UHGV virus genome: UHGV-1961940 | Source: a virus | Direction: 5' to 3' (one strand) | DNA length: 20,717 nt | Shown: piece by piece, positions 1 to 19,998 of the stretch | Position numbering within the stretch: position 1 is the stretch's first letter | How the letters are laid out: the number at the start of each line of letters is the position of its first letter | Notes under the pieces: model-generated | What the model saw: only the letters and a program-made list of their open reading frames with translations | What the model was told of the DNA's origin: nothing | Databases searched by the model: none | Made by a program: the position numbers and the translations under genes

Positions 1-792
1 CAGGAAGAAACTGGCAATCTGAGTTTTCGCGCTGGCAATCTGGGATTTTCCATCTTCTAATTTTTTCTTTGCATCTGCAAGTTGTGTTTTCCCGTCTTCC
101 AGTTTCTTCCTGGCATCTTCTAATTGTTTCTTACCATCTTTATATTGTTTCTTTCCGTCCTTAAGTTTCTTTTCACCGTCATCCAGTTCTTTCTTCGCAT
201 CTGCAAGTTTCTCATTGGCTTCTTTTTTGCCGTCTTCCAGTTCTTTCTTTGCATCTGCAAGCTTTTCATTGGCTTCATCCACTACTTCATCATAACGGAT
301 CTGACAACGTTCTTCCTCGATTCCCTTTACGCGTTCCTGCACTCTTTCTATCAGGCTTTCATAAGCATCCGTATAACTGATCAGATTTTGTGCCCCATGA
401 ACCTGCACATAAATCTGTGTAAATACTTCCTGATCAAAATTCTCCGGGAGTACATAAGCAAACCCGTTAACTTCACCTGAACCAAGAGTTGTATTTCCAC
501 GATTATAAGATATATAAAGAGGGCTCTCACCAATACCTACAACTGTATAATCTACATTCTGCAAAAGCTTGCTGTCCCCGTCCTGCTTCAGTGTAATCTG
601 ATCTCCGACTTCGTAACTGTTATTCTCGGCAAATATATAATCCAGAAATATCTCGCCACTCTTCTCGGGAATTCTTCCTTCCATAACAGTGATCTGGTTT
701 ACTGTTTCATTCACTGATTCCACGGAGCACTTATCGCAAACCTCAACGACATTGATAGTACCATAGTATTTATAAAGAATATAGCCAACGTA
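1..792 (-). pseudogene. Fragment of an FtsX/MacB-family ABC transporter permease (periplasmic core domain plus XXXLXXG heptad-repeat coiled-coil region). It is 5'-truncated by an in-frame TGA at 793-795, and its 3' end runs off the window start. An internal ATG at 682-684 could allow expression of a truncated product.
   Basis: Translating the minus strand by hand gives ...YKYYGTINVVEVCDKCSVESVNETVNQITVMEGRIPEKSGEIFLDYIFAENNSYEVGDQITLKQDGDSKLLQNVDYTVVGIGESPLYISYNRGNTTLGSGEVNGFAYVLPENFDQEVFTQIYVQV...EANEKLADAKKELEDGKKEANEKLADAKKELDDGEKKLKDGKKQYKDGKKQLEDARKKLEDGKTQLADAKKKLEDGKSQIASAKTQIASFFL. The frame is open down to nucleotide 1. This is the architecture of the large extracellular domain of Firmicutes FtsX-like permeases with LxxG heptads. 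There is no N-terminal TM segment and no SD in front of the ATG at 684. Confidence 0.5.
12..285 (-). repeat. Imperfect intragenic tandem repeats with a 21/42-nt period (heptad units) inside the permease fragment.
   Basis: ctggcaatctg occurs at 11-21 and 32-42. (tt)ctttctt(t/c)gcatctgcaag occurs at about 61-81, 187-207 and 241-261. ccgtcttccagtt occurs at 92-104 and 230-242. These encode repeated LADAKKELEDGKK-type heptads. Confidence 0.7.
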
Positions 793-1196
793 TCAAACAG
801 GTTAACCTGGTGGTCGTTGATAGTCCCCATGCATTTAGGATCACGGAACATATCAAAATGAATACCGGATAATCTTTCCATTAGCATAAAGTCATAACTG
901 TAGCAGTTATGGCAGTTCAAAGCTGTTGGTGACCAGTCAGAATTGCCTGTAAGCCAACCTTCCAACTCCGAAAAATCTGCTATGCGAACTTCAAAATCTT
1001 TATAAAGAGTTTTCTTTGCCAGAATGAAGTTCTTAGCCTTTTCTATATCCTCCTCGGAGTAGTGTGTGCGGTCATTTAGAGGAAGGAACAGCATAAAACG
1101 GTTCTTATTCAGCTCTTTAAACAGACCGCAGTGATAATAAAGATCTGGGTCTTCCAGCAAACCGGATGACTCAAAATCGAAAGACCACATACTCAT
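711..1196 (-). CDS. Hypothetical protein, 161 aa. The last ~28 codons (711-795) overlap the permease reading frame out of frame, so the C-terminus is probably not native.
   Basis: The ORF has an AAGGAG SD (revcomp of 1205-1210) 8 nt upstream of the ATG at 1196. The C-terminal tail ...DTLAIFFINTMVLSMSLRFAISAPWNQ lies exactly over permease-like sequence read in another frame. Confidence 0.5.
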   Translation of the reverse strand: MSMWSFDFESSGLLEDPDLYYHCGLFKELNKNRFMLFLPLNDRTHYSEEDIEKAKNFILAKKTLYKDFEVRIADFSELEGWLTGNSDWSPTALNCHNCYSYDFMLMERLSGIHFDMFRDPKCMGTINDHQVNLFDTLAIFFINTMVLSMSLRFAISAPWNQ

Positions 1197-1214
1197 ATAC
1201 AGTTCTCCTTAAAG

Positions 1215-1239
1215 GGGAGGCGGTTGTATTACCCCTCCC
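1215..1239 (-). promoter_or_regulatory. Intercistronic RNA hairpin (stem GGGAGG/CCTCCC, 13-nt loop) between the primase-helicase stop and the SD of the 161-aa gene.
   Basis: GGGAGG at 1215-1220 pairs with CCTCCC at 1234-1239. On the minus-strand RNA it is followed by UUUAAGGAG and then AUG. The same stem sequence recurs at 6075-6091. Confidence 0.35.
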
Positions 1240-1254
1240 ACTCTTTGTTAAACA

Positions 1255-3333
1255 TTAAAAAGGCGTTTCATCATCCTCAAAACCAGGGACCGGGTCAGAG
1301 GATGGATCATCGTACTGGAGGTCTTCCTGCGTGTCAACAGGCTTAACAGTAGGAGTTACAACCTTATCAGCCACAACCTTGCCCATAGGTGTTTCTACAA
1401 CTGCATGCTCCTGATCCTCAAACATAGCCTGAGGTCTCCAAACAACCTCCCCACCTTCTCCGTCTGTAAACATTTGCATTTCTTTGTCCCAGTACCAATT
1501 ACTGGCATCATGGAACTTACCTGTGTGCGGGTCCATAACCAAAGTGTCAGCAATACCTAGAGTTTTTGCTGGACGGTTTTTAAGACCTACCAGACGGACA
1601 CGTCCACGAGAACGATCCACCATTTCTTCGGCCTCGACACCTATGACTACCCAACTCAACTGTTCAAGCCCAGCCGATCCTCGCAAATTCTCTTTTCGCA
1701 CAGGATACCAGAAAGGTAATGGGTTACCATCCTTGTCCTTAGGGGGCACAATCTCTGTACGTTTGAGGTGAGCGATCACCAAGATAAACACGTTAAACTG
1801 CTTACAAAACGCAGCCAGTTGGGTCATAGCCATGTCCAGTTCTTTTCGCTCATCCTTAACATTAAGCCCTGAAATTACCATGGACAGGTGATCCAGCACA
1901 ATATAACGACAATGGTACAGGCAAACCATTTGCTTAAGCTTGGTAATCAACTCGTCCACTGGAATAGACCCGAAATGTTTGAACACTTTGATTTTTCCAG
2001 CTTTTGCCCATGATTGGTGAATCTCTGCGTGTTCTTGATCAGTTAAAAACTGGCTAGGATCTTCAACAAACTCTTTAACATCAAACCCTAACTGGTTTGC
2101 ATACAAGGAGTTAATTGCTTCCTCTGGGTCCTCCTCAAGATGAATCATGCATAGACGATCATCCTCTTCGTAATCATCAGCCTTTGGACATGTCGGGTCC
2201 ATTAGGTATCTTGCAATACAGTGTTCCAGTTTTTTAGCTACAGTTGTTTTACCGCCTCCTGATGGACCTGTAAGCATTACGAGTGTCCCTTTGTGCAAGC
2301 CTTTTAGCATTTTTTGCAGTTTTGGGAACTCTGCGCTGATATCTACCCCGTTGGAAGTCTTTTTCCGCAAAGATTCGATAGAGAAGTCTTCTAAATCCGA
2401 TACAGCATCCGGTACATACTTAACAGGATGCCGGAACATGTTTACAATATCTTCCAGCTTTTTAGCCTTCAGCATGTCACGGATATCTTTTACACCGTCA
2501 GGATCGTTTACTTCACCAGGGTACTCTACGTGGTAAACGTTATCAGCCATCAAAAATGCTGCGATATTGTGCGTAGCCTCAACACCTTTAATGACGTGTT
2601 TTTGCTTCTCTACCTCGTTAGCTGCATCGTTATCCATTGCCAGCACAACTGTTCCATAGCTACGGATAAACTTCTCATTGTTTGCAAAAGTATCTACTGC
2701 GTTTGCACATCCGCAGTTAATTCCAACAAAAGGTAGGCAGGGTTTTCCTGCCAGATCACCACCGTTGATAACTGCATCGATCCCGTCCTGTACCTCTTTA
2801 GCCCACTGCTTCACCTTTGCCGGGGCTTTAGCGTTGGTGAGAATCCCTTTTACTTGTATCTGATATGCAGCCTGCCATGCTGCAATAACATCACCTTCTC
2901 CCTCGCAAACGTTAATCTGCTTACGGTTGTTGGAAGATGCACACAGCTTTTGACCAAACATCTGGGAGTTAGCCTTTACGATGCCAACAACGGAGAAATG
3001 GCCCCTTTGCTCTTTAGGAATCGTCCAGTCGCGCTTTTTGAAACCGGACAGATTTCCGTAGCGGTCGTAATATGGGAAATATGTTGCAGTGACTGTCACA
3101 CCGTCTTCTTGGGACAATGCTGATCGCACACCAAAATATTGTGCAGCCATCAGACCGATATTTTGTTGTGGGACAGGGACAATTTTAGTATTTTCTAAAA
3201 CAGTCTCTACAGTTTCAACTTCTTTTTCATCACGATAGTCTCGTTTCACACTTCCCCCACTTTTATACTTAGTTGCTTTCGGGTTTGGCTCACCGAAACG
3301 GTTGTATGCAGATGCCATAAATTTACTTCCCAT
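1255..3333 (-). CDS. Bifunctional DNA primase/helicase (T7 gp4-like): an N-terminal TOPRIM DnaG-type primase domain without a Cys4 zinc-binding domain, plus a C-terminal DnaB/RecA-fold hexameric helicase, ending in an acidic tail.
   Basis: TOPRIM motifs are CEGEGD and VVLAMDNDAAN. Walker A is TGPSGGGKTT and Walker B is YIVLDHL. The C-terminal tail is QYDDPSSDPVPGFEDDETPF. An AAGGAG SD lies upstream of the ATG at 3333. Confidence 0.9.
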   Translation of the reverse strand: MGSKFMASAYNRFGEPNPKATKYKSGGSVKRDYRDEKEVETVETVLENTKIVPVPQQNIGLMAAQYFGVRSALSQEDGVTVTATYFPYYDRYGNLSGFKKRDWTIPKEQRGHFSVVGIVKANSQMFGQKLCASSNNRKQINVCEGEGDVIAAWQAAYQIQVKGILTNAKAPAKVKQWAKEVQDGIDAVINGGDLAGKPCLPFVGINCGCANAVDTFANNEKFIRSYGTVVLAMDNDAANEVEKQKHVIKGVEATHNIAAFLMADNVYHVEYPGEVNDPDGVKDIRDMLKAKKLEDIVNMFRHPVKYVPDAVSDLEDFSIESLRKKTSNGVDISAEFPKLQKMLKGLHKGTLVMLTGPSGGGKTTVAKKLEHCIARYLMDPTCPKADDYEEDDRLCMIHLEEDPEEAINSLYANQLGFDVKEFVEDPSQFLTDQEHAEIHQSWAKAGKIKVFKHFGSIPVDELITKLKQMVCLYHCRYIVLDHLSMVISGLNVKDERKELDMAMTQLAAFCKQFNVFILVIAHLKRTEIVPPKDKDGNPLPFWYPVRKENLRGSAGLEQLSWVVIGVEAEEMVDRSRGRVRLVGLKNRPAKTLGIADTLVMDPHTGKFHDASNWYWDKEMQMFTDGEGGEVVWRPQAMFEDQEHAVVETPMGKVVADKVVTPTVKPVDTQEDLQYDDPSSDPVPGFEDDETPF

Positions 3334-3466
3334 TAATTCTGCTCCTTACTACAGGCTCGTTTGCTAAGAATACAGCTTTTGCCCAGCCAATAACTGCACC
3401 ACCAGACCCGTCAAATAGACTCCACACAACACCTTTGTGGTAGTGTTCTTTGTAGATGAATTTCAA
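3323..3466 (-). CDS. Possible 47-aa small ORF (TTG start, MKFIYKEHYHKGVVWSLFDGSGGAVIGWAKAVFLANEPVVRSRINGK) overlapping the primase start by 11 nt. It may instead be a relic of a duplicated gene start.
   Basis: An AGGAGACAGC SD lies 3 nt before the TTG. The SD, start and first codons are a diverged copy of the initiation region of the 401-aa gene at 8995-9033 (MIFIYEHFKTRK versus MKFIYKEHYHKG). Confidence 0.2.
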   Translation of the reverse strand: MKFIYKEHYHKGVVWSLFDGSGGAVIGWAKAVFLANEPVVRSRINGK

Positions 3467-3479
3467 TTTGCTGTCTCCT
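3444..3479 (-). repeat. Copy A of a diverged translation-initiation cassette (AGGAGACAGC ... start ... TTCATCTAC ... GAACA). Copy B is at 9002-9032.
   Basis: On the plus strand, tgttc / gtagatgaa / gctgtctcct are shared in the same order and spacing at both loci. Confidence 0.5.
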
Positions 3480-3484
3480 AATGC

Positions 3485-3512
3485 AAAAAGCCCCACCCTT
3501 TCGGGCAGGGCC
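3485..3512 (-). terminator. Rho-independent terminator on the minus strand, immediately after the 68-aa gene stop.
   Basis: Minus-strand RNA reads GGCCCUGCCCGAAAGGGUGGGGC followed by UUUUU. This gives a 4-bp plus 3-bp GC stem with a 2x2 internal loop and a GAAA tetraloop. Confidence 0.6.
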
Positions 3513-3517
3513 TAGTG

Positions 3518-3724
3518 TTAAACCCGGATACCTATTGTATACTCGGTGGATACCAATGTCAAATCTAAATTTAAAATTTCTTGCATCTCATAATATGCGT
3601 CCAGGGTTAGATACATTTCCCCATCCTTTTCTACATACTTGTCCAAGTGCTTGAGGCATTTCGGATAACTATCAAGTGCAGCTTTCAGGCACTCAAACTC
3701 TGTGCTGTTGATGAATCCTTCCAT
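3518..3724 (-). CDS. Hypothetical protein, 68 aa.
   Basis: ORF in the leftward operon, 5 nt downstream of the preceding gene. No recognisable motifs. Confidence 0.5.
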   Translation of the reverse strand: MEGFINSTEFECLKAALDSYPKCLKHLDKYVEKDGEMYLTLDAYYEMQEILNLDLTLVSTEYTIGIRV

Positions 3725-3729
3725 CTTGG

Positions 3730-3996
3730 CTACCCGTTCTTAATGATAGCACTGTAGTGAGATTTAGCTTCCTGAATGCAATGGGTCCAAGCATCAACCT
3801 TCTCTTCGAAAAGTCCAAAGAACTTCTTTTTGGTGAGCTTCAGATTCTTTAAGTGCTTAAGCACTCGGTTGCCGATTACAGCCACATCACGAAACTTAAG
3901 AATCACTTTGTCGATATCCTCGCGACCTATTTTCACAAAACAGGCCTTACACATTTCAGGGGAGGAATAACCAACTTTCCACATAAAATCTGACAT
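3730..3996 (-). CDS. Hypothetical protein, 88 aa.
   Basis: ORF in the leftward operon; tightly spaced. An SD GGAGAAGG lies upstream of the ATG at 3996. Confidence 0.55.
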   Translation of the reverse strand: MSDFMWKVGYSSPEMCKACFVKIGREDIDKVILKFRDVAVIGNRVLKHLKNLKLTKKKFFGLFEEKVDAWTHCIQEAKSHYSAIIKNG

Positions 3997-4008
3997 ACCA
4001 CCTTCTCC

Positions 4009-4311
4009 TTATTCCTTAAAAGCTATGATATCATAGGAACTTGCAGATGATTCTGGTGAAGAATGACTCCAGTCCAGGTCATCAGAATAGTCAGCGTACT
4101 GTGCGCCACTACGCAGTTTGTATTTTACCCACTTACCTGGTGCAGGGTTTTCACCACCTTCCCATACTTCCCAGCCTTCTGGCAGGCCGTCCTGAGCGTA
4201 GTCATCCACCTCACTAATGATCTTAGGGTTTGGCACCAAGATCCCCGCAGGCTCTTCCTTCCGGATAAGTGTCCACACAGCGTATGTGTCTGAGCAGGCG
4301 CATGATAGCAA
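4009..4311 (-). CDS. Hypothetical protein, about 100 aa, with an apparent TTG start and no internal Met.
   Basis: The frame is open from 4311 to 4009 with no in-frame ATG. It contains an acidic Trp-rich motif EGWEVWEGGENPAPGKW. The start codon is uncertain. Confidence 0.45.
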   Translation of the reverse strand: MLSCACSDTYAVWTLIRKEEPAGILVPNPKIISEVDDYAQDGLPEGWEVWEGGENPAPGKWVKYKLRSGAQYADYSDDLDWSHSSPESSASSYDIIAFKE

Positions 4312-4402
4312 AGTATATCCACTATTCAGAACTTCTGCAAGCTCTTTTCAGCATCTTCCAATTTGGCTAAGTGGTATTGGATAATCTTCACACCTGTAAT
4401 CA

Positions 4403-4708
4403 TCAGAAACCTCCCACTTCTTCAGCAAATGCAGCTGCTGTCGTCGCTGCATCCAGATAGGACTCTAGTTCACGGGCTGCACGTTTGTAAATTGAGTGGC
4501 GCATATCGTTTGGCAGTTGGTGGGAGTCCACCTCTTCACCGTTGTGGTAAACATGCACATCGGTGATTTGTCTAAATCCGTAACAGTCAACATCAGAATC
4601 CCGGCACTCCGGATCTGGCAACTGAACAACTGCCTGAGCTTCCACAGTAAACATATCGTCAAGTTCGAAATCGATTTCAAAAGTGTATGGTTTATAACGT
4701 TTCATCAT
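4403..4708 (-). CDS. Hypothetical protein, 101 aa.
   Basis: ORF in the leftward operon, 13 nt downstream of the methyltransferase stop. Confidence 0.55.
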   Translation of the reverse strand: MMKRYKPYTFEIDFELDDMFTVEAQAVVQLPDPECRDSDVDCYGFRQITDVHVYHNGEEVDSHQLPNDMRHSIYKRAARELESYLDAATTAAAFAEEVGGF

Positions 4709-4721
4709 TTGATTGTACTCT

Positions 4722-6047
4722 TTATTGATCAGAATTATCTTTCGTAATTAAGGTCTGGGTAAGTTTGTAATAGCGGAAGCCACCGCCACCTTGCCAGCTT
4801 GCAGACTTAGAAATACCACCTTGATCTTCACCATCAATCACTTTTTGCAAGCGAGGGATAATATGGGTATGACAATGATCACCCAGTTCGATCAAGATCC
4901 AACGTCTTTTCATCTTGTGGGCTACAGCAGCAGTAGTTCCCGAACCGCCGAATGAATCCAATACCAAATCACCTTCTCGCGTACACATTTCGAGAATCCG
5001 CTTCAAAAGCGCTTCTGGTTTTTTTCCATTTTTGAAACTAACGCCGCCTTCATTTGCTATTCCATTCCAACTAATGTCTGTCCAAACATCAGTTATTAGT
5101 TCCGCAGGTTGCATCTCACCGTCAATTTCCAAAAGCCTGTTGGAGTAAAAGACCATTTGCCTACCATTTGCGATATAAAATCCTTCAACATCCTCATTCG
5201 GATGTACATAAACCTTATCCCTATCTTTCTTTGACTTCTCGATAGTTTCTTTTCTCTTTATTTTAGCGCCACCACCAATTGCAACAGATTGAAATACACG
5301 TTCTGCATTATCAATTGCGAATTGTGCTAATTCATCATCGAATGTATCAGGCAGTTTTTTCTTGGCTTCTTTTGCATCTTTATAGCCATTGGCCTTTGCA
5401 AACGCATCGGCAATACCGCACCACGTCCAATTTTTATAATGGTCATCCGGGTTTAATAGGTATTTGTTATATCCTGTATCATACCCTTTAGGTATATAGA
5501 TTTTGTTAAGCGGTTTCTGGGTGCGATCTTTTGCATATACAAGCAAAAAGTTTGCTGTGGAGAAAACTGTGGCTCCTGTTGCCTTAAATCCCGAAGGGGA
5601 ATTTGTGGTCATCGATATGGTATTTAACTGATTTGCACGACCAAAAATCTCGTCCATCAAAACTTTTAAATACGCCATTTCGCAATCATCTAAGTGAACG
5701 AATATTACCCCATCATCACTTAGAAGATTACGAATTATTTCTAACCTATCCCTCATTAAGCCCAGCCAAATGGAATGCTCCAGGCTATCATCGTAATGCT
5801 CAAAAGCCCTCCCGGTATTGAATGGTGGGTCTATGTAAACACACTTCACTTTGCCTGCATACTCTTGCTCTAGCGCCTTCAATGCTAATAAGTTATCTCC
5901 AAAAATCAGTTTATTATCAAAAATATCGTTTTCGGTCACTTTCTGGCTGTGGTAAGATTTGCTAGAATCTTCTAACAAAATGTGTGGCTCTAACTTTTTG
6001 CGCTCGTTTTTACCTATCCAGGTAAGTTCTAATTTGGTTTTGCTCAT
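4722..6047 (-). CDS. Site-specific DNA methyltransferase, beta class (N6-adenine/N4-cytosine; Type III Mod-like). Orphan: no restriction subunit is adjacent.
   Basis: Motif IV is VYIDPPFNTG. It precedes motif I, LVLDSFGGSGTTAAVA, which is the beta-class order seen in EcoP15I Mod. The N-terminal LELTWIGK resembles the Mod N-terminal LxWxGK. An AAGGAGAG SD is present. Confidence 0.9.
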   Translation of the reverse strand: MSKTKLELTWIGKNERKKLEPHILLEDSSKSYHSQKVTENDIFDNKLIFGDNLLALKALEQEYAGKVKCVYIDPPFNTGRAFEHYDDSLEHSIWLGLMRDRLEIIRNLLSDDGVIFVHLDDCEMAYLKVLMDEIFGRANQLNTISMTTNSPSGFKATGATVFSTANFLLVYAKDRTQKPLNKIYIPKGYDTGYNKYLLNPDDHYKNWTWCGIADAFAKANGYKDAKEAKKKLPDTFDDELAQFAIDNAERVFQSVAIGGGAKIKRKETIEKSKKDRDKVYVHPNEDVEGFYIANGRQMVFYSNRLLEIDGEMQPAELITDVWTDISWNGIANEGGVSFKNGKKPEALLKRILEMCTREGDLVLDSFGGSGTTAAVAHKMKRRWILIELGDHCHTHIIPRLQKVIDGEDQGGISKSASWQGGGGFRYYKLTQTLITKDNSDQ

Positions 6048-6074
6048 CGTTTGGTGCTCTCCTTAGTTTTTTGT

Positions 6075-6091
6075 GGGGAGGAGGCCTCCCC
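6075..6091 (-). promoter_or_regulatory. Intercistronic RNA hairpin GGGGAGG-AGG-CCTCCCC between the 113-aa gene stop and the methyltransferase SD.
   Basis: Perfect 7-bp GC-rich stem. It has the same stem sequence and the same position (stop, hairpin, UUU, AAGGAG, ATG) as the hairpin at 1215-1239. Confidence 0.35.
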
Positions 6092-6108
6092 TTTATACTC
6101 ACATCTTA

Positions 6109-6450
6109 CTACTCAAGGTCTTCAGAGTCAAGCTCAAAAAGAATCAAACTGTGCATGCCTGCAGATAGATTAACACACCCTGCAACAATAAGGGTCTGAT
6201 AGTAAGGTTCAGCACCCTCAATGTCTTCGTTAAAATCCACAACAAGGTAGTCACCTTTGTTAAAGGTGTATTTGTCCGATGTAAACGCAAAACCTGCCCA
6301 GTCCCCTACTGCAGGGTCTTTATCAGTCACCTTTGTTAACAGTAGATCTTTTTCACGGGATCTTTTAGTAAAATCGTGAATCACAACATCCTTCTCTTCA
6401 GGAGTTGGATTGCCACACACGTAGTTAACTATATTTCTCCACAAACTCAT
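6109..6450 (-). CDS. Hypothetical protein, 113 aa. The start is reassigned to the internal ATG at 6450.
   Basis: The track ORF 6109..6492 would overlap the helicase by 68 nt. The ATG at 6448-6450 has a GAGGGG SD and overlaps the helicase stop by only 26 nt. Confidence 0.6.
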   Translation of the reverse strand: MSLWRNIVNYVCGNPTPEEKDVVIHDFTKRSREKDLLLTKVTDKDPAVGDWAGFAFTSDKYTFNKGDYLVVDFNEDIEGAEPYYQTLIVAGCVNLSAGMHSLILFELDSEDLE

Positions 6451-7816
6451 ACGTCCCCTCTTCGGCTCTGGTTTCAAAATCTTTCCTGACAATTTTGTCT
6501 AAGTCAGGGAATGTTGTATTGTAAAACTCTACGACTCGCGGGTCAACAATAATGTCAACTTCTCTTAGTGGACGCAACAAGTTTATTCCTTGTATTGTCT
6601 TAACCCGACTCAAAGCAACATACGTCATCCCAGGAGAGAAAGCTCCGTTCTTTCCAAGGTCCAGGTTGTAACAATCTAGCGTAAGTCCTTGACTTTTATG
6701 AGATGTTACGGCATACCCAGATTTCAGAGGAAGTTGCCTGTATGACCCAATCACTACCCTCTCTATAAACTTCTCCATCTTCCTTTCTGCAATGTTGTAT
6801 CTCTGAGATGGCTTATACTCGTTATTTTCCCACAACCTCTGCTCTATGTCAACCTGTGTTCCATCTTCAAGCTCTACCACCACCGCCTTGTTCTTAAATT
6901 TAACAATTGTGGCACGTGTTCCGTTAACATAATAAGGTACTTTGTGCGTCGGGTCAACATCGTTGGCGGTTATCATAACTTTCATGCCAATTTTCAACTT
7001 CATCTCCTGCTCAACTGGCAGGGTGGAGGGAAACTTACCCTTCATTTCACCAGTGTATACCTTCTCTGGGGCGTTGATGGCATCATAGAACCTTCTGTTC
7101 ACTTCCTCTGCTTGTTTGTTGGTGGCGCAAATTGTGAGAGCGTCTGTTGGTACACCGCCTTTGTAACAGCGAGCATTAAGTTCTGCTACAACCTCTTTTA
7201 TGCGACGACCCTCACGAACACAGTTGAGCATTGTGGCAAATCGAATAGACTCCTGTCGGAACTGGTCTATTAGGGCTATGTTGTGAAGGTCCAGCTCTTT
7301 CCAAGATTCGGTATAGCAACATAGGTCTGTGTGGTAGAAGTTGAAGTAGGCCTCCTTCTCCATAGAAGAGACAACAGGAGGTGCCTGGTAAAAATCGCCA
7401 AACAATATGACCTGTATGCCTCCGAAAGGTTTGTCATTTTTTCGAAGGAAGCGGAGTTTTCTATCCATCTCTATAAACTTATCAGCACGGATCATAGAGA
7501 TTTCATCGATAATTAGGATGGTAAATGCCTTGCTTTTCAAAGGCTTTGCTGTTTTTGCCCTTATTGCAGTCCAGTCAGACTCCATGCTCACACCTGCTGC
7601 AAGATCGAAGGTTCGGTGTGCTGTTGCTCCATTAACGTTTAAAGCGGCTACCCCTGTCGGGGCAACCGTTATGCAAGAGTCTCCATACATTGACTGGATC
7701 ATGTTGATGAGGTACGTCTTCCCACAACCTGCGGGTCCTGAAACGAAGACATTCTCCCCACTCATGATTGCAACAAGGGCAGCATCTGTGCCTACATCAT
7801 ACTGCCCTTTTTCCAT
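6425..7816 (-). CDS. SF1B DNA helicase, Dda/RecD/Pif1-like.
   Basis: Walker A is VSGPAGCGKTYL and Walker B is LIIDEISM. The C-terminal block is GYAVTSHKSQGLTLD. A GAGGAGG SD is present. The start overlaps the upstream gene's stop as TAATG. Confidence 0.85.
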   Translation of the reverse strand: MEKGQYDVGTDAALVAIMSGENVFVSGPAGCGKTYLINMIQSMYGDSCITVAPTGVAALNVNGATAHRTFDLAAGVSMESDWTAIRAKTAKPLKSKAFTILIIDEISMIRADKFIEMDRKLRFLRKNDKPFGGIQVILFGDFYQAPPVVSSMEKEAYFNFYHTDLCCYTESWKELDLHNIALIDQFRQESIRFATMLNCVREGRRIKEVVAELNARCYKGGVPTDALTICATNKQAEEVNRRFYDAINAPEKVYTGEMKGKFPSTLPVEQEMKLKIGMKVMITANDVDPTHKVPYYVNGTRATIVKFKNKAVVVELEDGTQVDIEQRLWENNEYKPSQRYNIAERKMEKFIERVVIGSYRQLPLKSGYAVTSHKSQGLTLDCYNLDLGKNGAFSPGMTYVALSRVKTIQGINLLRPLREVDIIVDPRVVEFYNTTFPDLDKIVRKDFETRAEEGTYEFVEKYS

Positions 7817-9021
7817 TACGCCTCCTCGTAGATAATGTCGATGATGTTACCATCACGGTCAACTACGTATTCAATCGGATCGCCATCTTTGCGTGATTCC
7901 GGTGCTGCTACGATTTCGTAGCGGCATGCACGGCACTTAGCACTGTTGTGTTGGTATGGCACACTAACCACATCCGCAGGGTCAACCATAACCATCATTA
8001 CAGTGCCATAGCCCGCTGCATACTCTTTGCTGGCGCAGTGCAGGCCATAAGAACACGCAGCTTCCGGATCATCTTCTACAAAGTTACGAGGCATGGACAC
8101 AAAAGCACCCTGGTATTGTGGAACTTTACCGCTGTGCCAATCCACCCACCTGCTCCCGTTAAACTGAACCCCCTTATAGCAAATGATTCGACCATCTTCT
8201 GCAACCTGGATGTCATTAGCCTGCATGAAATCGTAGAGCATGTTCACAGATTTTGCAGACGGGTTGCGTAGCAGACGGACAAGGAATTTAACATATCGGT
8301 CGTCCAGTGTTCCATCTACATAATCTTCCTCAATTTTCTTTGCAATGGTGGATCGCATCTCTACACCGTAGTAGTAGAGCTTACCATCTTTCATGATCAG
8401 GTTGTCTGCAAGTGTGGTGAACTCATTCTTGCGTTCCAGCCAGACAAGGATTTCACCAATTGCCTCATCATATTCCTGAACAGAAATATGGTCGAAGACT
8501 TTCTGGTAAACTTCCTCACTTTCGCTGCGGCGAATTTCAAAAATGCCTTCGTTGCAGGTGATCTGGAGGAGTTCCCCGCAAATAACTACCAAAGGCTCGA
8601 TGCTTCGAGACTGTTGCTGAGACACACTGCTCACTACTTCCAGCACCGGATCTTTGACTTCTACTAAAGGTTCTTCTGACTTGATTGCTACCCCAGTGAA
8701 CCCCACACCGTGAACAACACACAGTGGGTATACCACGCCCCAACGTTTAACGGAACCTTCACCTGAATCTAAGATCATGGCGTACTTACCGTTGTCTTCC
8801 AGTCCGTAGCGGAATAAACGGGCCTCTTCGCGGGTTTCAAAATCCTCACGGGTATAGCAGACACTGTCTCGGTCAGGATCAAACAGCTCTGGGGCACCTA
8901 CTGCCAGTGTCCATGTTGTAGTACCTTTCTCAATAGCACATGTGAAACCCTTCTTCTCAAGTTCTGCACGGCGGTCGCGTGCTTCTTTACGAGTTTTGAA
9001 ATGTTCGTAGATGAAAATCAT
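7816..9021 (-). CDS. Hypothetical protein, 401 aa. The conserved-looking C-terminal block is of unknown family.
   Basis: Long ORF with a TAAGGAGACAGC SD. The C-terminal region is ...GLHCASKEYAAGYGTVMMVMVDPADVVSVPYQHNSAKCRACRYE.... I could not assign a domain from sequence alone. Confidence 0.7.
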   Translation of the reverse strand: MIFIYEHFKTRKEARDRRAELEKKGFTCAIEKGTTTWTLAVGAPELFDPDRDSVCYTREDFETREEARLFRYGLEDNGKYAMILDSGEGSVKRWGVVYPLCVVHGVGFTGVAIKSEEPLVEVKDPVLEVVSSVSQQQSRSIEPLVVICGELLQITCNEGIFEIRRSESEEVYQKVFDHISVQEYDEAIGEILVWLERKNEFTTLADNLIMKDGKLYYYGVEMRSTIAKKIEEDYVDGTLDDRYVKFLVRLLRNPSAKSVNMLYDFMQANDIQVAEDGRIICYKGVQFNGSRWVDWHSGKVPQYQGAFVSMPRNFVEDDPEAACSYGLHCASKEYAAGYGTVMMVMVDPADVVSVPYQHNSAKCRACRYEIVAAPESRKDGDPIEYVVDRDGNIIDIIYEEA

Positions 9022-9032
9022 AGCTGTCTCCT
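9002..9032 (-). repeat. Copy B of the translation-initiation cassette (see 3444-3479).
   Basis: AGGAGACAGC-TATG-ATT-TTCATCTAC-GAACA on the minus strand matches AGGAGACAGC-AAATTG-AAA-TTCATCTAC-AAAGAACA at copy A. Confidence 0.5.
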
Positions 9033-11014
9033 TATTTGGTGTTATTCTTTGCGTCGATCAGTTCACGGTATTCAATCATAGCAGGAGTGTCCCAATATTT
9101 CAAGCCCACATGCTTCAAAAGTGGATATTTCTTTTCCAATCTTGCAATATAGGCCTTCCCGCACTTGACTCGGTTGGCGATTAAGATTTTGGCACGATGA
9201 TTTAGCTCACTGTGCTTCCACGCGGTGTTACCTTCCCACTTGTGGAAATGTGGCCGATAATTTCCAAAATCTTGCATGGGGATAATTTTCCCTAATTGTC
9301 TATACAGGCTGTCATATGAAGTTTCATTTGCTGCGCGAGTCAGTAAGAATTTCCAAGCATCCTCTTTCAACAAATGTTCCACATTCTTCTCTGTAACATA
9401 CTGGCAATCAGGATCAGTCCAAAGCAGACGAGATTCTGATACCAAGTACAGATCTTCACCTTCAGGAATCTGGAGTGCAGCACGCACACGGTCATAATTT
9501 TGCTGGTAGATGTTACTCAGCTGTCCCAGCCAACAACTTCCACGTTGGATATCACCCTCATAAGGAATGCAGTGCTTAATCTTCTTGAACTCTGCCTTAG
9601 TAATACGTTCACGACGGAAGTAACCATCCTTCTCAAGCTTTTTAACCCAATAACCTGGCTCGTAATGAGTTTTTGTTTCACCTTTCTTCGCAGGTCGGCG
9701 AGGGAGCTCTGATAACAATTTGACAGTATCTGCAAAGAACGGATGGTGTGCCGCCTCTTTAAACTCTTTCACCAGATCCGTGTTCCGGCAATAGAAAACG
9801 TTGCGTCCGGTGATTTCGCTTAAGTAGTTACACTTATTTCGGTTATATTTACCATCTCCGTCGTTAAATACAAGGTATACACCTCGTAAGAACTCCGACT
9901 TTCCGTAACGAGCATAGCCTATGCGGCCTTTATTTAAGCCGCCAGCGAAAATTTCACAATCGCCTAAGTCGCCAAGCCCTGTTTCTTCCCAACGGTTCCA
10001 CATAAAGTTTTTGCCGAAGATGTGTCCGAACACTCCACTATTCTTCATCATTTCACGTGCTTCTGCGGAGGTTTTTGCCGTCTCCAGTTCTGCAATAACT
10101 TCTGCCCCGCGAAGACGTATACCTTCTTTGACAAAGGCCTCCAGGCGATCCTGGAATCCACCGTCGTCATGGCCCTCTATGGTCCATTCACGCCCAGGGT
10201 TAATATTGCAATCCCCAATAGGAATTTCCACGCAGATTGCAGGGTAATCGGTCAATGTCTCCAGGAACTTGGAGCGGTAAGGTTGGTGACCCATCACAAC
10301 ACGGCTCTCATCAGAACTGGTATAACCTTTCAGGATGGTCATTTTCCAGCCATCCTTCTCGTAATGATACTGTGCCTCAACCTTGTCACCTTCTAACATC
10401 TTACTGGTCATAGGATCGGTGACGATGAACGGAAACTTCGCATAGCGTAAGCACGATGCAATAGCAGTGCAATATTTCAGGACATGCTCTTTCTTAACAT
10501 GGAACTGAACTTTTACCCCGTTGTGCTCTTCAGTCTTCCGCTCACGGATCTTGGTAACGTTTGGGATACCCTGATCCAAGAACAATAGATATGTGCTTTC
10601 AACACCATTGTGCACACTGATCACATCGAAAGTGTCCACCATACTGAACGGAGCCTTTGAACCAACACCTTTATTACCTACCAGAGCGTTGCTGTTGCGC
10701 TTGGTTGACTCCCCGAGATTCATGAAAGTGTTGCGGACCATCTCTTCTGACATGCCCAATCCAACGTCCTGCACAAAGAAGTATGGTTCAAGGTCTGTAG
10801 GAGAGTGAATGATGATCGGTACATCACCCCGTCCAGACTCAACATGGGAGTCCACAGCATTGAAGATTGGTTCACGGCAGCTTGCCAGCACCTTATCTTC
10901 GTAAATCCCTTTAATGATTAGCCCAAAAGTCTCTTTGTTCAGAGAAATTGAGCCCCTGGTGACCTCCATATTTCCGGTCAGCACTGCTTTAGTTTCATTA
11001 CTGTTTACAATCAT
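9032..11014 (-). CDS. GHKL (Bergerat-fold; HATPase_c-type) ATPase domain protein, 660 aa, with a large uncharacterised C-terminal region.
   Basis: N box is REPIFNAVDS (ExxxNAxD), G1 box is DVGLGM and G2 box is GNKGVGSKAPF. An AAGGAG SD is present. The start overlaps the hydrolase stop as ATGA. Confidence 0.65.
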   Translation of the reverse strand: MIVNSNETKAVLTGNMEVTRGSISLNKETFGLIIKGIYEDKVLASCREPIFNAVDSHVESGRGDVPIIIHSPTDLEPYFFVQDVGLGMSEEMVRNTFMNLGESTKRNSNALVGNKGVGSKAPFSMVDTFDVISVHNGVESTYLLFLDQGIPNVTKIRERKTEEHNGVKVQFHVKKEHVLKYCTAIASCLRYAKFPFIVTDPMTSKMLEGDKVEAQYHYEKDGWKMTILKGYTSSDESRVVMGHQPYRSKFLETLTDYPAICVEIPIGDCNINPGREWTIEGHDDGGFQDRLEAFVKEGIRLRGAEVIAELETAKTSAEAREMMKNSGVFGHIFGKNFMWNRWEETGLGDLGDCEIFAGGLNKGRIGYARYGKSEFLRGVYLVFNDGDGKYNRNKCNYLSEITGRNVFYCRNTDLVKEFKEAAHHPFFADTVKLLSELPRRPAKKGETKTHYEPGYWVKKLEKDGYFRRERITKAEFKKIKHCIPYEGDIQRGSCWLGQLSNIYQQNYDRVRAALQIPEGEDLYLVSESRLLWTDPDCQYVTEKNVEHLLKEDAWKFLLTRAANETSYDSLYRQLGKIIPMQDFGNYRPHFHKWEGNTAWKHSELNHRAKILIANRVKCGKAYIARLEKKYPLLKHVGLKYWDTPAMIEYRELIDAKNNTK

Positions 11015-11511
11015 TTATTGCGCTCCTTGTAGTAGATATGGCTCCCGAATTGAGTTGTCCTCTGCATCTTTTTTGCCCATTTCGGTCGTACTTTGGTTGT
11101 ATGGTAGTGTGTTGCTCCACCTGTTATGTCCATAGCCATGTATGCAACATGGTTGTTATTATAGACCTTTATAAGCATCTTTGCAAGACTTTTAGCGTGA
11201 TCCCATGAATCTTTTTCTGTCACCTTAAAAGTTTTGCCGTGGTTTGTCCACGAAAACTGGTTAGGTTGGTAGACAATCTTTCTTATAGTGTCTGGGTATT
11301 TAGGGTGGGATTTCCTGTTTAGTGTGGCAAACCCAGATGCCAGCATACCCATCGTGCCATCTCCTCTAGCTTCCCTGTAGATATTGCATGCCAGAATGTT
11401 TTCCTTAGTATCTGATGGCTTGCAAGTATGATATACTTTTTGTTTTGGTGCTGCAACAACAGGCAGCGATAAAAGTGCGCTCAAAATAATAGCAAAGATC
11501 TTAATTTTCAC
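11011..11511 (-). CDS. Secreted cell-wall hydrolase of the SleB/CwlJ (Hydrolase_2) family, with an N-terminal signal peptide and a GTG start.
   Basis: The N-terminus MKIKIFAIILSALLSLPVVAAP is a typical signal peptide. The family block is ACNIYREARGDG...YPDTIRKIVYQPNQFSW. A GGAG SD lies 7 nt before the GTG. Confidence 0.75.
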   Translation of the reverse strand: MKIKIFAIILSALLSLPVVAAPKQKVYHTCKPSDTKENILACNIYREARGDGTMGMLASGFATLNRKSHPKYPDTIRKIVYQPNQFSWTNHGKTFKVTEKDSWDHAKSLAKMLIKVYNNNHVAYMAMDITGGATHYHTTKVRPKWAKKMQRTTQFGSHIYYKERNK

Positions 11512-11520
11512 AATGACTCC

Positions 11521-11548
11521 AAATAGAAAATCCCCGCCGAAGCGGGGG
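11521..11548 (-). terminator. Rho-independent terminator on the minus strand between the 126-aa gene and the hydrolase gene.
   Basis: Minus-strand RNA reads CCCCGC-UUCG-GCGGGG, a 6-bp GC stem with a UUCG tetraloop, followed by AUUUUCUAUUU. Confidence 0.6.
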
Positions 11549-11560
11549 AGGTCTTAGAAA

Positions 11561-11941
11561 TTAATCGTAGTGTGCCAAAATCTCTCCATCGTTGCAAGTT
11601 CCCTCTACAAAGTTATGAAGATTCATGCACTCATCTTGATAGAAGAATTTACCGCTTTTCAGCCGTAGGCCAAACAACTCCGCATCTCCACGATGGCAAG
11701 CCTCTACAAGTTCATAGATTTCATACGGCAACTCTCCGTCGTCATGGAAGAATCCAGCCTTATCGTTGACATAAATGAAGAAATAATCACTGCTATCGCA
11801 AGCGTCCAATATTTTAAACCAGACTTCATCTACATCTTTTTCTCGGATATCGATCACGCAAGTGGAACTGCATTCGTACTCCTTCTCCGGCTCCTCGGTC
11901 AATACCACCAGGTAGTTTCCCCGCTTACCTACTTTAGCCAT
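11561..11941 (-). CDS. Hypothetical protein, 126 aa. The start is reassigned to the internal ATG at 11941.
   Basis: The track ORF start at 11989 would overlap the MoxR gene by 38 nt. The ATG at 11939-11941 is preceded by an AAGGGGGG SD. Confidence 0.6.
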   Translation of the reverse strand: MAKVGKRGNYLVVLTEEPEKEYECSSTCVIDIREKDVDEVWFKILDACDSSDYFFIYVNDKAGFFHDDGELPYEIYELVEACHRGDAELFGLRLKSGKFFYQDECMNLHNFVEGTCNDGEILAHYD

Positions 11942-11951
11942 ACAACCCCCC

Positions 11952-13136
11952 TTAAGCTTTAGCCAAAATGGCGCTAAACTCTTCACCAAACTCTTTTACA
12001 ATCTTCATCAGGTTTGGGTATGCTTTGATCAGCTGAGCAACAATCTTGTCACGCCCTTTACCGATAAGCAAGGCATTTCCTAAGGCATTAGGTTTCATCA
12101 TCGCCATAAAGACTGAGAATACAAAATCTCGGTTCTCGTCCTTGAAGTTTTCCCAAAGGAAATCGAGGAAGTTTGCCACGCAGCTGACAAGATCTTCGTC
12201 TGAGATACTTGCATTTTCCATCATATTGCGAATAGCGATACAACCTTCAGATCCAAGAATCCACAAAATGTCTGGCTGCTTAGGACCTACGTATTCTTTG
12301 CAGCCACCTGCCATAATCCGACCGATTTCCGGTAAATTACGTTTCTTGGTGTGGTAAGTCCAGATCTCTACCGCTGCAGTGTGACCAATAGCACCTTGTA
12401 GAAGAACACGGGCCATAGCGTCAGAAATAATACCGCTGTCAAAATCGTGCAAGATGTCAGATGCAGCAACCCAAGATCGTGGTGTGGCAAAAGATGGACA
12501 ATTAATCTCAGCCATAGCCTCATAATTATCAATAGCTGATGGAACTCTTTTCAGATACCCAATTACAGAGGAGTGAACCCCGTTGAGGAATGCGTAGTCC
12601 TCAATAAACACCTCTGCATTGCTTGTAACCTCTACAATGATAAAACGGTTAGCCAGAGGGGCTTCGAGCGCCGAAAGAACCGCACCATCTGTAGAACGGT
12701 TACCCGCAGCCACAAAAACAGAACCCTTAGGGAATGCATAGGTGCCGCACTTGTGGTCAAGCATAATTTGCATTGCAACCTTTTGCAGGTAGTTATCTGC
12801 ATGAGTGAGCTCATCCAGAAAGATAATTCCGCTCCAGTCAGGATCCGCAGGCCAAAATTCTGGAATTGCAAACACTGTACGTGTAGTTCCATCCGCTTCT
12901 ACAGGGATAGGTAGCCCAGATAAGTCGGCAGGATCTTTATCTGACAGTCGCACGTCAACAAGGTTGTCATCTCGCTCACCGAACATATTATCAGCGATCT
13001 GCTTCATCACCTGGCTTTTACCCACACCCATTGGTCCCAAAATTAGGACAGATCGGCTATGACGTTGGGCAAACTGAATAATAGCTGGCAACTCACGGAC
13101 AGTGATTTGACCACTTTCGAATACGTTTCTTGACAT
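11952..13136 (-). CDS. MoxR/CbbQ/NorQ/CobS-like AAA+ ATPase (AAA_5 type).
   Basis: Walker A is LGPMGVGKSQ and Walker B is IIFLDELTHAD. The sensor/arginine-finger region is VFVAAGNRS...APLANRF. The start overlaps the upstream stop as TAATG. Confidence 0.85.
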   Translation of the reverse strand: MSRNVFESGQITVRELPAIIQFAQRHSRSVLILGPMGVGKSQVMKQIADNMFGERDDNLVDVRLSDKDPADLSGLPIPVEADGTTRTVFAIPEFWPADPDWSGIIFLDELTHADNYLQKVAMQIMLDHKCGTYAFPKGSVFVAAGNRSTDGAVLSALEAPLANRFIIVEVTSNAEVFIEDYAFLNGVHSSVIGYLKRVPSAIDNYEAMAEINCPSFATPRSWVAASDILHDFDSGIISDAMARVLLQGAIGHTAAVEIWTYHTKKRNLPEIGRIMAGGCKEYVGPKQPDILWILGSEGCIAIRNMMENASISDEDLVSCVANFLDFLWENFKDENRDFVFSVFMAMMKPNALGNALLIGKGRDKIVAQLIKAYPNLMKIVKEFGEEFSAILAKA

Positions 13137-13405
13137 TAGTAAAAGTCCTCTACTTGTGTGTAAGTGTTTTCAAAGTTTTCCAAAACAGATATCACATCGA
13201 ATCTGTCAATATCATACGTGACTCTCCAGTTGTACGCAACCCTTTCTGCTGTTGCCTCTTCTGGCGCTAGTCGTCTGCTGGCATAAAAGAGTGTTGGAGT
13301 ACACTTTCTTGCTTGCCCTCTAACTTTCCCATAATAATATCTGTGAATATCTTTGTCAAAATTTAACTCTTTTTCTGCACGAAGTTCATATTGCTGGTAT
13401 AACAT
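13136..13405 (-). CDS. Hypothetical protein, 89 aa.
   Basis: ORF with an AAGGAG SD 9 nt upstream. Translationally coupled to the MoxR gene. Confidence 0.55.
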   Translation of the reverse strand: MLYQQYELRAEKELNFDKDIHRYYYGKVRGQARKCTPTLFYASRRLAPEEATAERVAYNWRVTYDIDRFDVISVLENFENTYTQVEDFY

Positions 13406-13449
13406 CTCTACTACTCCTTAAGCAGCATCCTTGCCGCCATTCCTGCCCA

Positions 13450-13830
13450 CTAAAATGCAGTCCGAATCCAGACAAGGTTCTTATCTGCCCAATCATAGAG
13501 GCAAGTCATTGCACTATTGAATTGCTCACACGGAGGATAATCTTCTTCCATCTGGCGCATAGCAGAGCCTTGTGGGTAAAGCTCCCGTGCTGCAAACCAC
13601 GCATCGTAGTCATCAACGGTGTCGAAGTAGTATACAACATCCTCTAACTCAGGATCGAACTTTGAACTATCAGGATCCAGTTGTTCAGGGAACTTGGAGC
13701 GTAACTTGCCAGCCACAATACTTGCCAACTCGCTAACATGCTTATTGTCCCACTCCACTAGCTTCCCGTCTTCAGTGATGCGTCCTAACCACTGATCATG
13801 AAGGTCAACTGTTGTCTTCCACTGAGCCAT
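13450..13830 (-). CDS. Hypothetical protein, 126 aa.
   Basis: ORF in the leftward operon, 2 nt from the upstream gene. Confidence 0.6.
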   Translation of the reverse strand: MAQWKTTVDLHDQWLGRITEDGKLVEWDNKHVSELASIVAGKLRSKFPEQLDPDSSKFDPELEDVVYYFDTVDDYDAWFAARELYPQGSAMRQMEEDYPPCEQFNSAMTCLYDWADKNLVWIRTAF

Positions 13831-13832
13831 TA

Positions 13833-14090
13833 TCAGTCCACCTCTTCTTCTCGTTGTAGTTCAAGATACCCGTAGGTCTGGACATCTTGAAGGGTGTGGA
13901 ACTCCCCCTCTGCCGCTAAGGCACGAACAACTTGGCACAAAACCTTATGAGGAACTTCATCCAAACCTAGATTCAGTGCAGGAAACACCTTATCTAAGTC
14001 AACAAAATAAACGAACTGTAGCTCACCAGCTTCAAAAGGTGTATCTTCAATAAACATCTTCTCGGCATTAGTCAAGATCTGCACTTTCAT
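13833..14090 (-). CDS. Hypothetical protein, 85 aa.
   Basis: ORF whose start is TAATG-coupled to the upstream gene. Confidence 0.55.
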   Translation of the reverse strand: MKVQILTNAEKMFIEDTPFEAGELQFVYFVDLDKVFPALNLGLDEVPHKVLCQVVRALAAEGEFHTLQDVQTYGYLELQREEEVD

Positions 14091-14446
14091 TATTCTACCT
14101 CCTCTTCTTTTTCTTCGGCATTAGTTTCATGGCTACCCCACTCGGGAGTTTCCACCTCGATAGTAAACTCACGCACTACACGGTAATTGCCCATGAAGCG
14201 CTCTACTTCGTCAAGGCTTATGGAGAGGCCATTGGCAACCAGGTCTGCAGCACCCTCTTCTACCAGGTAGTCCAGATTGGCTTCCAGAGCCTCAGGTTCA
14301 AACCCTGTCAATGCAATCAGATAACCTTCCCCTTCATCAGGGAGGACAATACAGCCCAATTGATTTTCTTTAAAAAGGCAGTGACCATCATTATTGATTG
14401 GGTGTTCATTGCAGTAAATAGCTGCACGATAAGTAACTTTAGACAT
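14090..14446 (-). CDS. Hypothetical acidic protein, 118 aa, starting MSKVTYRA. The start is reassigned to the internal ATG, which has an AAGGAG SD.
   Basis: AAGGAGACCTTACCG ATG TCT AAA GTT.... The first 24 coding nt plus 5 upstream nt are identical to 16285-16313. The C-terminal EEKEEEVE is acidic. Confidence 0.6.
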   Translation of the reverse strand: MSKVTYRAAIYCNEHPINNDGHCLFKENQLGCIVLPDEGEGYLIALTGFEPEALEANLDYLVEEGAADLVANGLSISLDEVERFMGNYRVVREFTIEVETPEWGSHETNAEEKEEEVE

Positions 14447-14451
14447 CGGTA
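14423..14451 (-). repeat. Copy 1 of a perfect 29-nt repeat taccgATGTCTAAAGTTACTTATCGTGCA spanning a start codon. Copy 2 is at 16285-16313 on the opposite strand.
   Basis: Exact 29/29 identity, read by hand on both strands. Confidence 0.85.
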
Positions 14452-14459
14452 AGGTCTCC

Positions 14460-14738
14460 TTAGGCAATTGTCATTTTACATTCTTGAAATTTTAACACAA
14501 GACGGTAATTGTGTCTAGTGTCTAAAAAGATTTTTTCAACCATCAGGCACACGGTATAACCGTCCATCTTGTTGACAACAAAATCTCCAGGATGAGGGAG
14601 GATGTCTCCCGGATTGGGGAAACATAGTCCACTCAGAAAGGCATCGTCAGTGGTGGACTTAATAGATTTCCACACACTGTCTGCCTGAACATGTTCACCG
14701 ACGTAATATACATTACCACATGCCTTCATCATAGTCAA
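14460..14738 (-). CDS. Hypothetical protein, 92 aa.
   Basis: ORF whose start overlaps the stop of the upstream 299-aa gene. Confidence 0.55.
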   Translation of the reverse strand: MTMMKACGNVYYVGEHVQADSVWKSIKSTTDDAFLSGLCFPNPGDILPHPGDFVVNKMDGYTVCLMVEKIFLDTRHNYRLVLKFQECKMTIA

Positions 14739-15634
14739 ACCCTCGCATAAATTAAACTTGTATCAGTATACTTCTTTAATGGGTAAATATCCTGTCCATA
14801 GATGCAATCATTAAACACCTCATCTACCCAAAGGCTACACTTATATCCCATCATTTCTAAAACACCCATCTCTTCTTCGGTAAACTTATCACCGCTCTTG
14901 CAAGATGTCAATACCTCATTCTGAACTCTTGCTACCTCGAAGCGGTTATTGGCAATATCGCTATTGGCGATCAAATACTCACCTAGAGGGTGTGCGGCAT
15001 TAAAGATGCACAGTGGACGGCTGACGTAATAGTCTCCAGGTGTATAAAAATTGTTGAGGTCTTTCACTAGAACATTCTTATCAGTCACTTCATTTATAAC
15101 ATCATGCATATCGCACATCTTTATATGTTTGAGGATTCCATCCCCCATCACAAAATAAAAACTTGCTGAGACACTTTCGGCATAGATCTTACTAGATCCG
15201 TTGTAGTTGTATTTTACTCGGATGCTAACGGGGGTTTTTCCTGTCGCGTTAGCCATCATCCAAAGAAATGGCAGCTCATACTTCTCCTCTGAGGAAACAA
15301 AAGGTGAGGTAGCCAGAGATCGAAAACCTCCAGAGAAGTTGAAAGTTACAGAACCGCTCCGGCGGTATGATACCGCGTATTCTACTTTTATATCGACATA
15401 CCCATTGGAATAGGTGTGTCCTTCATTATCTAAATATGTCCACTTATCAGACCCAGATACCAATCTACGCTCAATAACCTTCATCACTATAGGAATTAAT
15501 GGGTTGGTACAAACCGCTTTTGAAGTAGCTTTATCATCTAAAGCCTCGTAAATTGCAGAAAGGATGTCCCCAGCTGAAAGATTGGTTGTTATGTCCTGTT
15601 TCCACCGCGTACTAAAACTGTTAAGATTTGCCAT
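14735..15634 (-). CDS. Hypothetical protein, 299 aa. It is the first gene of the leftward operon.
   Basis: An AGGAG SD lies 9 nt upstream of the ATG at 15634. The gene is immediately downstream of the predicted leftward promoter. Confidence 0.65.
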   Translation of the reverse strand: MANLNSFSTRWKQDITTNLSAGDILSAIYEALDDKATSKAVCTNPLIPIVMKVIERRLVSGSDKWTYLDNEGHTYSNGYVDIKVEYAVSYRRSGSVTFNFSGGFRSLATSPFVSSEEKYELPFLWMMANATGKTPVSIRVKYNYNGSSKIYAESVSASFYFVMGDGILKHIKMCDMHDVINEVTDKNVLVKDLNNFYTPGDYYVSRPLCIFNAAHPLGEYLIANSDIANNRFEVARVQNEVLTSCKSGDKFTEEEMGVLEMMGYKCSLWVDEVFNDCIYGQDIYPLKKYTDTSLIYARV

Positions 15635-15674
15635 AAGTAAGTGCTCCTATGTTAGTTTTCTTTCGAATGGGTGC

Positions 15675-15703
15675 ACTATATTGTGGAGTTAGAGTAAAGT
15701 CAA
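15675..15703 (-). promoter_or_regulatory. Sigma70/SigA-type promoter for the leftward operon: TTGACT, 17 nt, TATAGT.
   Basis: On the minus strand, the -35 TTGACT is the revcomp of 15698-15703, the spacer is 17 nt, and the -10 TATAGT is the revcomp of 15675-15680. It lies about 40 nt upstream of the ATG at 15634. Confidence 0.5.
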
Positions 15704-16754: not shown

Positions 16755-16758
16755 TGAC

Positions 16759-18248: not shown

Positions 18249-18263
18249 GAGAGGAGGTTATTT

Positions 18264-19053: not shown

Positions 19054-19054
19054 T

Positions 19055-19996: not shown

Positions 19997-19998
19997 TC

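Follow-up and report, generated by a model that had tools for sequence, protein, structure and literature searches.

At the left end of the gut virus genome UHGV-1961940, a phage-like gene module runs straight into part of a bacterial permease gene, and the locus raises the question of whether this join was made in a living cell or arose by technical means. We analysed the whole available stretch of 20,717 nt (hereafter the window). The preliminary description of this DNA left three options open: a prophage or other mobile element inserted in a surface-permease gene, a captured fragment of a host gene, and an assembly chimera. Based on the comparisons presented here, the left 784 nt of the window are probably a technical chimera and not a biological feature, and we put the probability that they were formed by template switching during amplification at roughly 0.78. 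The DNA-level identities indicate that material from three unrelated gut sources is joined in this one record: part of a permease gene from Blautia, 57 nt of a DUF4301 gene from Bacteroidales, and a stretch of a virulent, rV5-like phage of E. coli.

The reading frames that had been described at the locus are indeed present. The minus-strand frame is open from nucleotide 1 up to an in-frame TGA at 793-795, and a 161-aa ORF with an ATG start (711-1196, minus strand) runs in another frame into the permease region. The abrupt junction that had been reported is correct in so far as sequence identity changes sharply; however, there are two junctions and not one, with the 57-nt Bacteroidales piece between them. 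Sequence comparison places the breakpoints at 723/724 and 780/781, the second with a crossover inside the ATAG at 781-784. Base composition is similar on both sides of the junction (~40-45% GC) and is uninformative; it is DNA-level identity that settles the origin of every piece of the window. All three pieces have independent counterparts among public sequences, at 99-100% identity, so chance matching is not the cause.

The leftmost piece (10-723, minus strand) is identical at 713 of 714 nt to positions 5714-5001 of locus L002, from an uncultured Blautia MAG of the Hadza gut (CAKRWH010000004.1), and the single mismatch is synonymous. In a scan of the translated left window against one genome per GTDB species, query residues 24-261 matched the Blautia MAG at 100% amino-acid identity over 238 residues. 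The intact parent gene (L002 4689-8465) encodes a 1258-aa permease of the FtsX/MacB type with a coiled-coil insert, which has two FtsX domain matches (1.6e-28) and a MacB_PCD match (1e-12); an ABC ATPase gene lies directly upstream. In the native locus the permease gene is whole and is interrupted by no large ORF. The window holds codons 105-342 of the 1258, or ~19% of the gene. These codons take in a portion of the MacB periplasmic core domain and run into the first of the coiled-coil repeats; in the minus-strand product the repeats are rich in Lys, Glu and Asp. Missing from the N-terminus are 104 codons, close to the 100-150 estimated in the preliminary description, and, with Blautia identity lost again at window position 9/10, ~916 codons on the C-terminal side are not part of the Blautia piece. 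Neither a start codon, nor the N-terminal TM helix, nor an FtsX domain is found in the 10-723 fragment, and in comparison with the intact Blautia permease most of the coiled coil, both FtsX domains and the partner ATPase gene are absent. Intact homologues that naturally begin near the truncation would, according to the preliminary description, have spoken against its reading; they do not begin there, the intact Blautia gene starting 104 codons earlier, next to the ABC ATPase gene.

The permease homology was also overextended when it was read from the open frame: it truly ends at 723 and not at 792, and the top 23 codons of the minus-strand frame consist of 19 codons antisense to the Bacteroidales DUF4301 fragment followed by 4 phage codons. 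The core domain and the repeats that had been described are present, the fragment showing coiled-coil repeats and a partial MacB_PCD match. This Pfam match covers profile positions 100-194 and scores 19.3 bits, below the cutoff of 27; no FtsX match accompanies it. As the parent carries both FtsX and MacB_PCD domains and the fragment stays below threshold, the fragment derives from such a gene without being a functional member of the family. The suggested kinship with YhgE/Pip-type phage receptors is contradicted by the NCBIfam scan, in which no YhgE/Pip model matched either the intact 1258-aa Blautia protein or the fragment; the only matches were to FtsX/LolCE/YbbP-type permeases and to coiled-coil (SMC-like) proteins, all of them below cutoff.

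The 57 nt at 724-780, which encode ..GALIANLNDIDSTIVFIKN.. on the plus strand, match neither the Blautia nor the phage parent. They are found as an exact match (57/57) in a Bacteroidales MAG (DAAP01000003.1; L038 3092-3148), where they lie in frame within an intact ORF of 510 aa that gives a full-length match to DUF4301 in Pfam (E = 2.5e-210). The same 57-mer is exact in three human-gut metagenome contigs (L040-L042, of 1.5, 127 and 210 kb), and the metagenome scan with this sequence returned native, non-chimeric Bacteroidales contigs only; IMG/VR does not contain it. Its exact presence in native gut contigs identifies it as a fragment of a native Bacteroidales gene. An adapter, linker or vector origin was considered and rejected, since the sequence lies in frame within an intact DUF4301 gene in four native Bacteroidales contigs. 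A plasmid search with the 57-mer returned a single weak match, of 75% identity, to a Prevotella replicon. This match may represent a homologue of the DUF4301 gene. The replicon itself (NC_022111.1, Prevotella sp. oral taxon 299) is 1.77 Mb long, is filed as a 'plasmid' in PLSDB with one annotated feature, and is probably a second chromosome.

From position 781 onwards the window is phage DNA. When 1-3400 is compared by blastn with 50,697 phage records, matches begin only at 781, with 99.9% identity to APECc02 over 781-3389, and a megablast search with the whole window shows that 781-20711 is collinear with the E. coli Vequintavirus phages ime, HdK5 and nimi at 99.0% identity. When compared with rV5, ime (MN850576), HdK5 (MK373780) and APECc02 (NC_041869), this segment has the same gene order and 97-99.9% identity. 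It encodes the N-terminus of a DNA polymerase, a primase/helicase, one or more methyltransferases, a helicase, rIIB/rIIA, a cell-wall hydrolase, a MoxR-like ATPase and a metallopeptidase-like protein, and it is an ordinary member of the Vequintavirus group. The BASEL paper (PMC8594841) describes the subfamily as myoviruses that have 131-140 kb genomes and are often isolated on E. coli. A Blautia phage carrying a permease gene was also considered as the source of the left end and was rejected, as window 1-780 finds no match in the 50,697 phage records, even in a search mode for distant similarity.

The window copy differs from the reference Vequintaviruses in two respects: it stops in codon 139 of the DNA polymerase gene, and 621 nt of a Dcm-like methyltransferase gene are gone. 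The reference gene that starts at the equivalent of window position 1196 encodes an 809-aa family-A DNA polymerase. By BLASTP, the 161-aa ORF is identical to APECc02 gp012 at 139 of 142 residues, and residues 1-138 are exact. Codon 139 straddles 780/781, and codons 139-161 are a meaningless read-through of the Bacteroidales and Blautia pieces. The out-of-frame tail that had been suspected on this ORF thus exists, although it comprises 23 residues and not ~28. In total, 671 of the 809 polymerase codons are lost, among them the DNA_pol_A region (reference residues 620-742), which is missing from the 161-aa ORF. The truncated product has no Pfam match, and the exact 161-aa sequence is not on record in the collections scanned. 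The joined molecule could not replicate as a phage with its essential DNA polymerase cut mid-gene, and there is nothing functional at the junction region.

Several features of the related phages were observed alongside. Just left of where the phage part of the window stops (L001/L043 1-3416), both APECc02 and ime have an HNH endonuclease gene after the 809-aa polymerase ORF and a further ORF after that; the APECc02 annotation calls this last ORF 'DNA polymerase', that of ime a hypothetical protein. This arrangement suggests that the polymerase of these phages is split by a homing-endonuclease cassette. In HdK5 the region contains an additional HNH gene. At 18264-19053 on the plus strand, the window contains three head-to-tail ORFs of equal length, 87 aa each (18264-18527, 18527-18790 and 18790-19053), and three 264-nt ORFs for hypothetical proteins, two of them in the same VOG (VOG5597), lie at the equivalent site in ime; the three 87-aa ORFs may be a tandem triplication of a small gene. 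Finally, 16 unannotated GenBank records named 'Campylobacter phage', with Campylobacter jejuni as the host (e.g. MG065635.1, MG065646.1, MG065647.1), are 96-98% identical to the phage segment of the window over ~20 kb and look like mislabelled or contaminant coliphages.

The three parents can be aligned to the base at both joints. At the first junction, the Blautia parent reads ...GATTCCAC up to the break and continues with ATGG, the Bacteroidales parent reads ...GAGGCCAC and continues with GGAGC, and the window reads ...GATTCCACGGAGC; a seven-sequence alignment shows that the CCAC at 720-723 is common to the Blautia and Bacteroidales parents. At the second junction (781-791), the Bacteroidales parent reads ...AGAATATAGACAACGT and continues with TGTCC, the phage reads ...GGCTCATAGCCAACGTATC and the window ...AGAATATAGCCAACGTATC. 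Here the alignment of the parents reveals an imperfect homology of 10/11 over 781-791 (phage ATAGCCAACGT, Bacteroidales ATAGACAACGT), and the window has the phage allele at base 785. Microhomology of at least 4 nt is expected at a random junction with P = 0.016 analytically and 0.017 empirically with these sequences, and at both junctions with P ~2.4e-4; it is therefore above chance. The three origins, the two breakpoints and these microhomologies are read directly from the aligned sequences. A de Bruijn or overlap assembler works with overlaps much longer than 4 nt and is unlikely to have made the join by itself; the chimera must consequently already have existed in the reads.

Could this be a genuine boundary, with a prophage or mobile element inside a surface-permease gene, or with host gene fragments captured by a phage? 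The sharp junction, the truncated permease gene and the short microhomology, which is also known from in-vivo illegitimate recombination, are what such an event may leave, and the abrupt change from phage to bacterial DNA inside a bacterial ORF is also seen at prophage attachment-site junctions. Unlike such junctions, however, the window has no integrase and contains a piece of a third genome at the joint, and its phage part belongs to the Vequintavirus (rV5-like) phages, which we take to be strictly virulent; moreover, the bacterial gene comes from another phylum than the host of the phage. The phage sequence is truncated within an essential gene: the break follows codon 138 of the 809 in the DNA polymerase ORF and does not coincide with a genome terminus or att site. 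The absence of an integrase and of a tRNA had been noted in the preliminary description and is borne out: no integrase, recombinase or transposase domain was detected by Pfam in the 20 ORFs scanned, none is listed for this segment in the annotated reference phages, and no tRNA is present in the window. Window 1-3389 contains the chimeric end together with 2.6 kb of phage sequence (781-3389) and has no match in 5,426 complete E. coli genomes, and the absence of the tested phage segment from these genomes is consistent with strict virulence. Likewise, the 1-780 stretch is in no phage record, and the Blautia gene is intact in its native locus with its ATPase partner upstream. No host chromosome continues beyond the permease fragment, as Blautia identity ends again at 9/10. 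The far end of such an element, where an att core and the rest of the host gene would be expected, lies beyond the window.

Taken with the 99.9-100% identity of the Blautia and Bacteroidales fragments now joined to an E. coli Vequintavirus, these observations make a prophage boundary or gene capture very improbable, and neither is credible. The proposed disruption of a YhgE/Pip-like receptor gene by a prophage is accordingly refuted by the difference in phyla, the cut polymerase, the lack of any E. coli genome match and the lack of a YhgE/Pip model match. The captured-fragment option fails on the same combination of Blautia and Bacteroidales DNA with a coliphage whose polymerase is cut at codon 139. 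The hosts of the three pieces differ at the phylum level, Blautia being a Firmicute, so that no single cell supplies all three DNAs. A last biological variant would be an in-vivo product, in which a defective rV5-like genome was joined to Blautia and Bacteroidales DNA by microhomology-mediated illegitimate recombination and was then packaged in virions. An E. coli cell that had earlier acquired foreign gut DNA could, for instance, have been the site of such a capture; we consider its chances slimmer still. If it did occur, it would show directly that a virulent coliphage can capture DNA across phyla.

The third option of the preliminary description, a chimera, fits the three origins at 99-100% identity, and its most probable route would be a polymerase that switched templates while human-gut metagenome or virome DNA was being amplified, as in phi29 multiple displacement amplification (MDA). 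This mechanism is one that we infer. A displaced 3' end would have re-primed on another template at a few complementary bases, namely the CCAC at 720-723 and the ATAG at the second junction with its 10/11 homology over 781-791. Three pieces, 714 nt of Blautia, 57 nt of Bacteroidales and 19.9 kb of phage DNA, would thereby have entered one molecule or read, and the join would have been carried into the contig. In one study of MDA chimeras, more than 85% were inverted with an intervening deletion, and more than 70% were primed at 2-21 complementary nt (Lasken & Stockwell 2007, PMC1855051). The window junctions show complementarity of 3-5 nt, and up to 10/11 at one of them, and thus lie inside this 2-21 nt range.

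The same process may have produced inverted fold-backs at both ends of the window. At the left end (1-14), the alignment to the Blautia locus L002 ends at window position 10 and bases 1-9 are unmatched to the Blautia gene. A reverse-complement k-mer comparison shows that bases 1-14 are the exact reverse complement of 99-112, with the fold-back at 9/10 and a microhomology, ACTGG, at 10-14. The mismatch at 1-9 could also be read as strain variation in the repeat region of the Blautia gene, but with an exact inverted match of 14 nt to 99-112 a fold-back is the more convincing reading. A 23-mer spanning the window start is absent from all fetched loci. At the right end (20709-20717), all phage alignments stop at 20711, 6 nt before the end of the window, and 20449-20457 recurs as its reverse complement in the last 9 nt, with a 3-nt microhomology, TGC; as only 6 bases are novel, a fold-back here is no more than suggested. 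The two ends are inverted relative to sequence 90 nt and 255 nt inside the window, with only 9 and 6 novel bases, respectively, and orientation is undefinable for the joins between genomes. Inversions with intervening gaps of 90 nt and 255 nt would resemble the published class of MDA chimeras. The inverted ends, together with reference matches that stop 9 nt and 6 nt short of them, point to a complete contig bounded on either side by a fold-back chimera.

A further discontinuity lies within the phage segment. Relative to 109 of the 110 matching phage records, 621 nt of the gene for a Dcm-like C5-cytosine methyltransferase are missing at 3373-3389; the region concerned in the reference loci L001/L043 is 5610-6213, and the gene adjoins the primase/helicase gene in the reference Vequintaviruses. 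A direct repeat of 14-17 nt, CAGCTTTTGCCCAG(C/T)CA, flanks the lost stretch exactly, one copy on either side, and two short ORFs remain (3323-3496 and 3518-3724). The deletion junction is spanned in one piece by a single one of the 110 records (MG065646.1, 95% identity). The loss may be natural, as a rare deletion variant, or may be one more template-switch artefact, and a deletion between direct repeats of this length would also fit the behaviour of MDA chimeras.

Several points count against the template-switch route. MDA chimeras are mostly intramolecular inversions, whereas the central junctions of the window are inter-molecular and join the genomes of different organisms; inter-molecular chimeras are a minority class in MDA. 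In addition, microhomology of 4 nt is also typical of illegitimate recombination in vivo, the fold-backs at the ends involve only 9 and 6 novel bases, and the source contig did not turn up in the collections scanned. The join could also be technical in another way, by blunt or sticky ligation during library construction, by a chimeric long read, or by an assembler that stitched the end of a phage contig to low-coverage bacterial reads. This would draw on the same three-origin evidence, and a middle piece as short as 57 nt is expected from the ligation of small fragments; the phage piece also ends in the polymerase region, where the reference phages have HNH genes, and such variable regions beside the polymerase may be places where assemblies break. 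Ligation, however, predicts no excess of microhomology, and both junctions have at least 4 nt (P ~2.4e-4), with up to 10/11 at one of them. An assembler error would need overlaps of tens of bases and not of 4, and no adapter or vector sequence is present at the joints, the plasmid search having yielded the weak Prevotella homologue only. We therefore regard these other routes as unlikely.

Concatenation in silico, by a scaffolding or record-handling error that placed contigs from one gut metagenome end to end, deserves hardly any weight. It would agree with the human-gut origin of all three parent sequences and with the further discontinuities within 6-9 nt of the window ends; however, neither the microhomology at the two joints nor the 57-nt piece nor the inverted fold-backs would be produced by software, and there are no runs of N and no linker sequences.

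Template switching during amplification thus remains our preferred reading, and the contig matters as a case of quality control and not of biology. Before any downstream use, positions 1-784 and the last 6 nt are to be trimmed. Near-identical matches to unrelated genomes, in combination with breaks in essential genes and 4-nt microhomologies with terminal fold-backs, provide a signature by which amplification chimeras can be screened. Taken at face value, the contig would falsely tie a coliphage to Blautia or Bacteroidales and give rise to a spurious account of a prophage in a receptor gene, and protein databases would receive the 161-aa chimeric product as a genuine protein.
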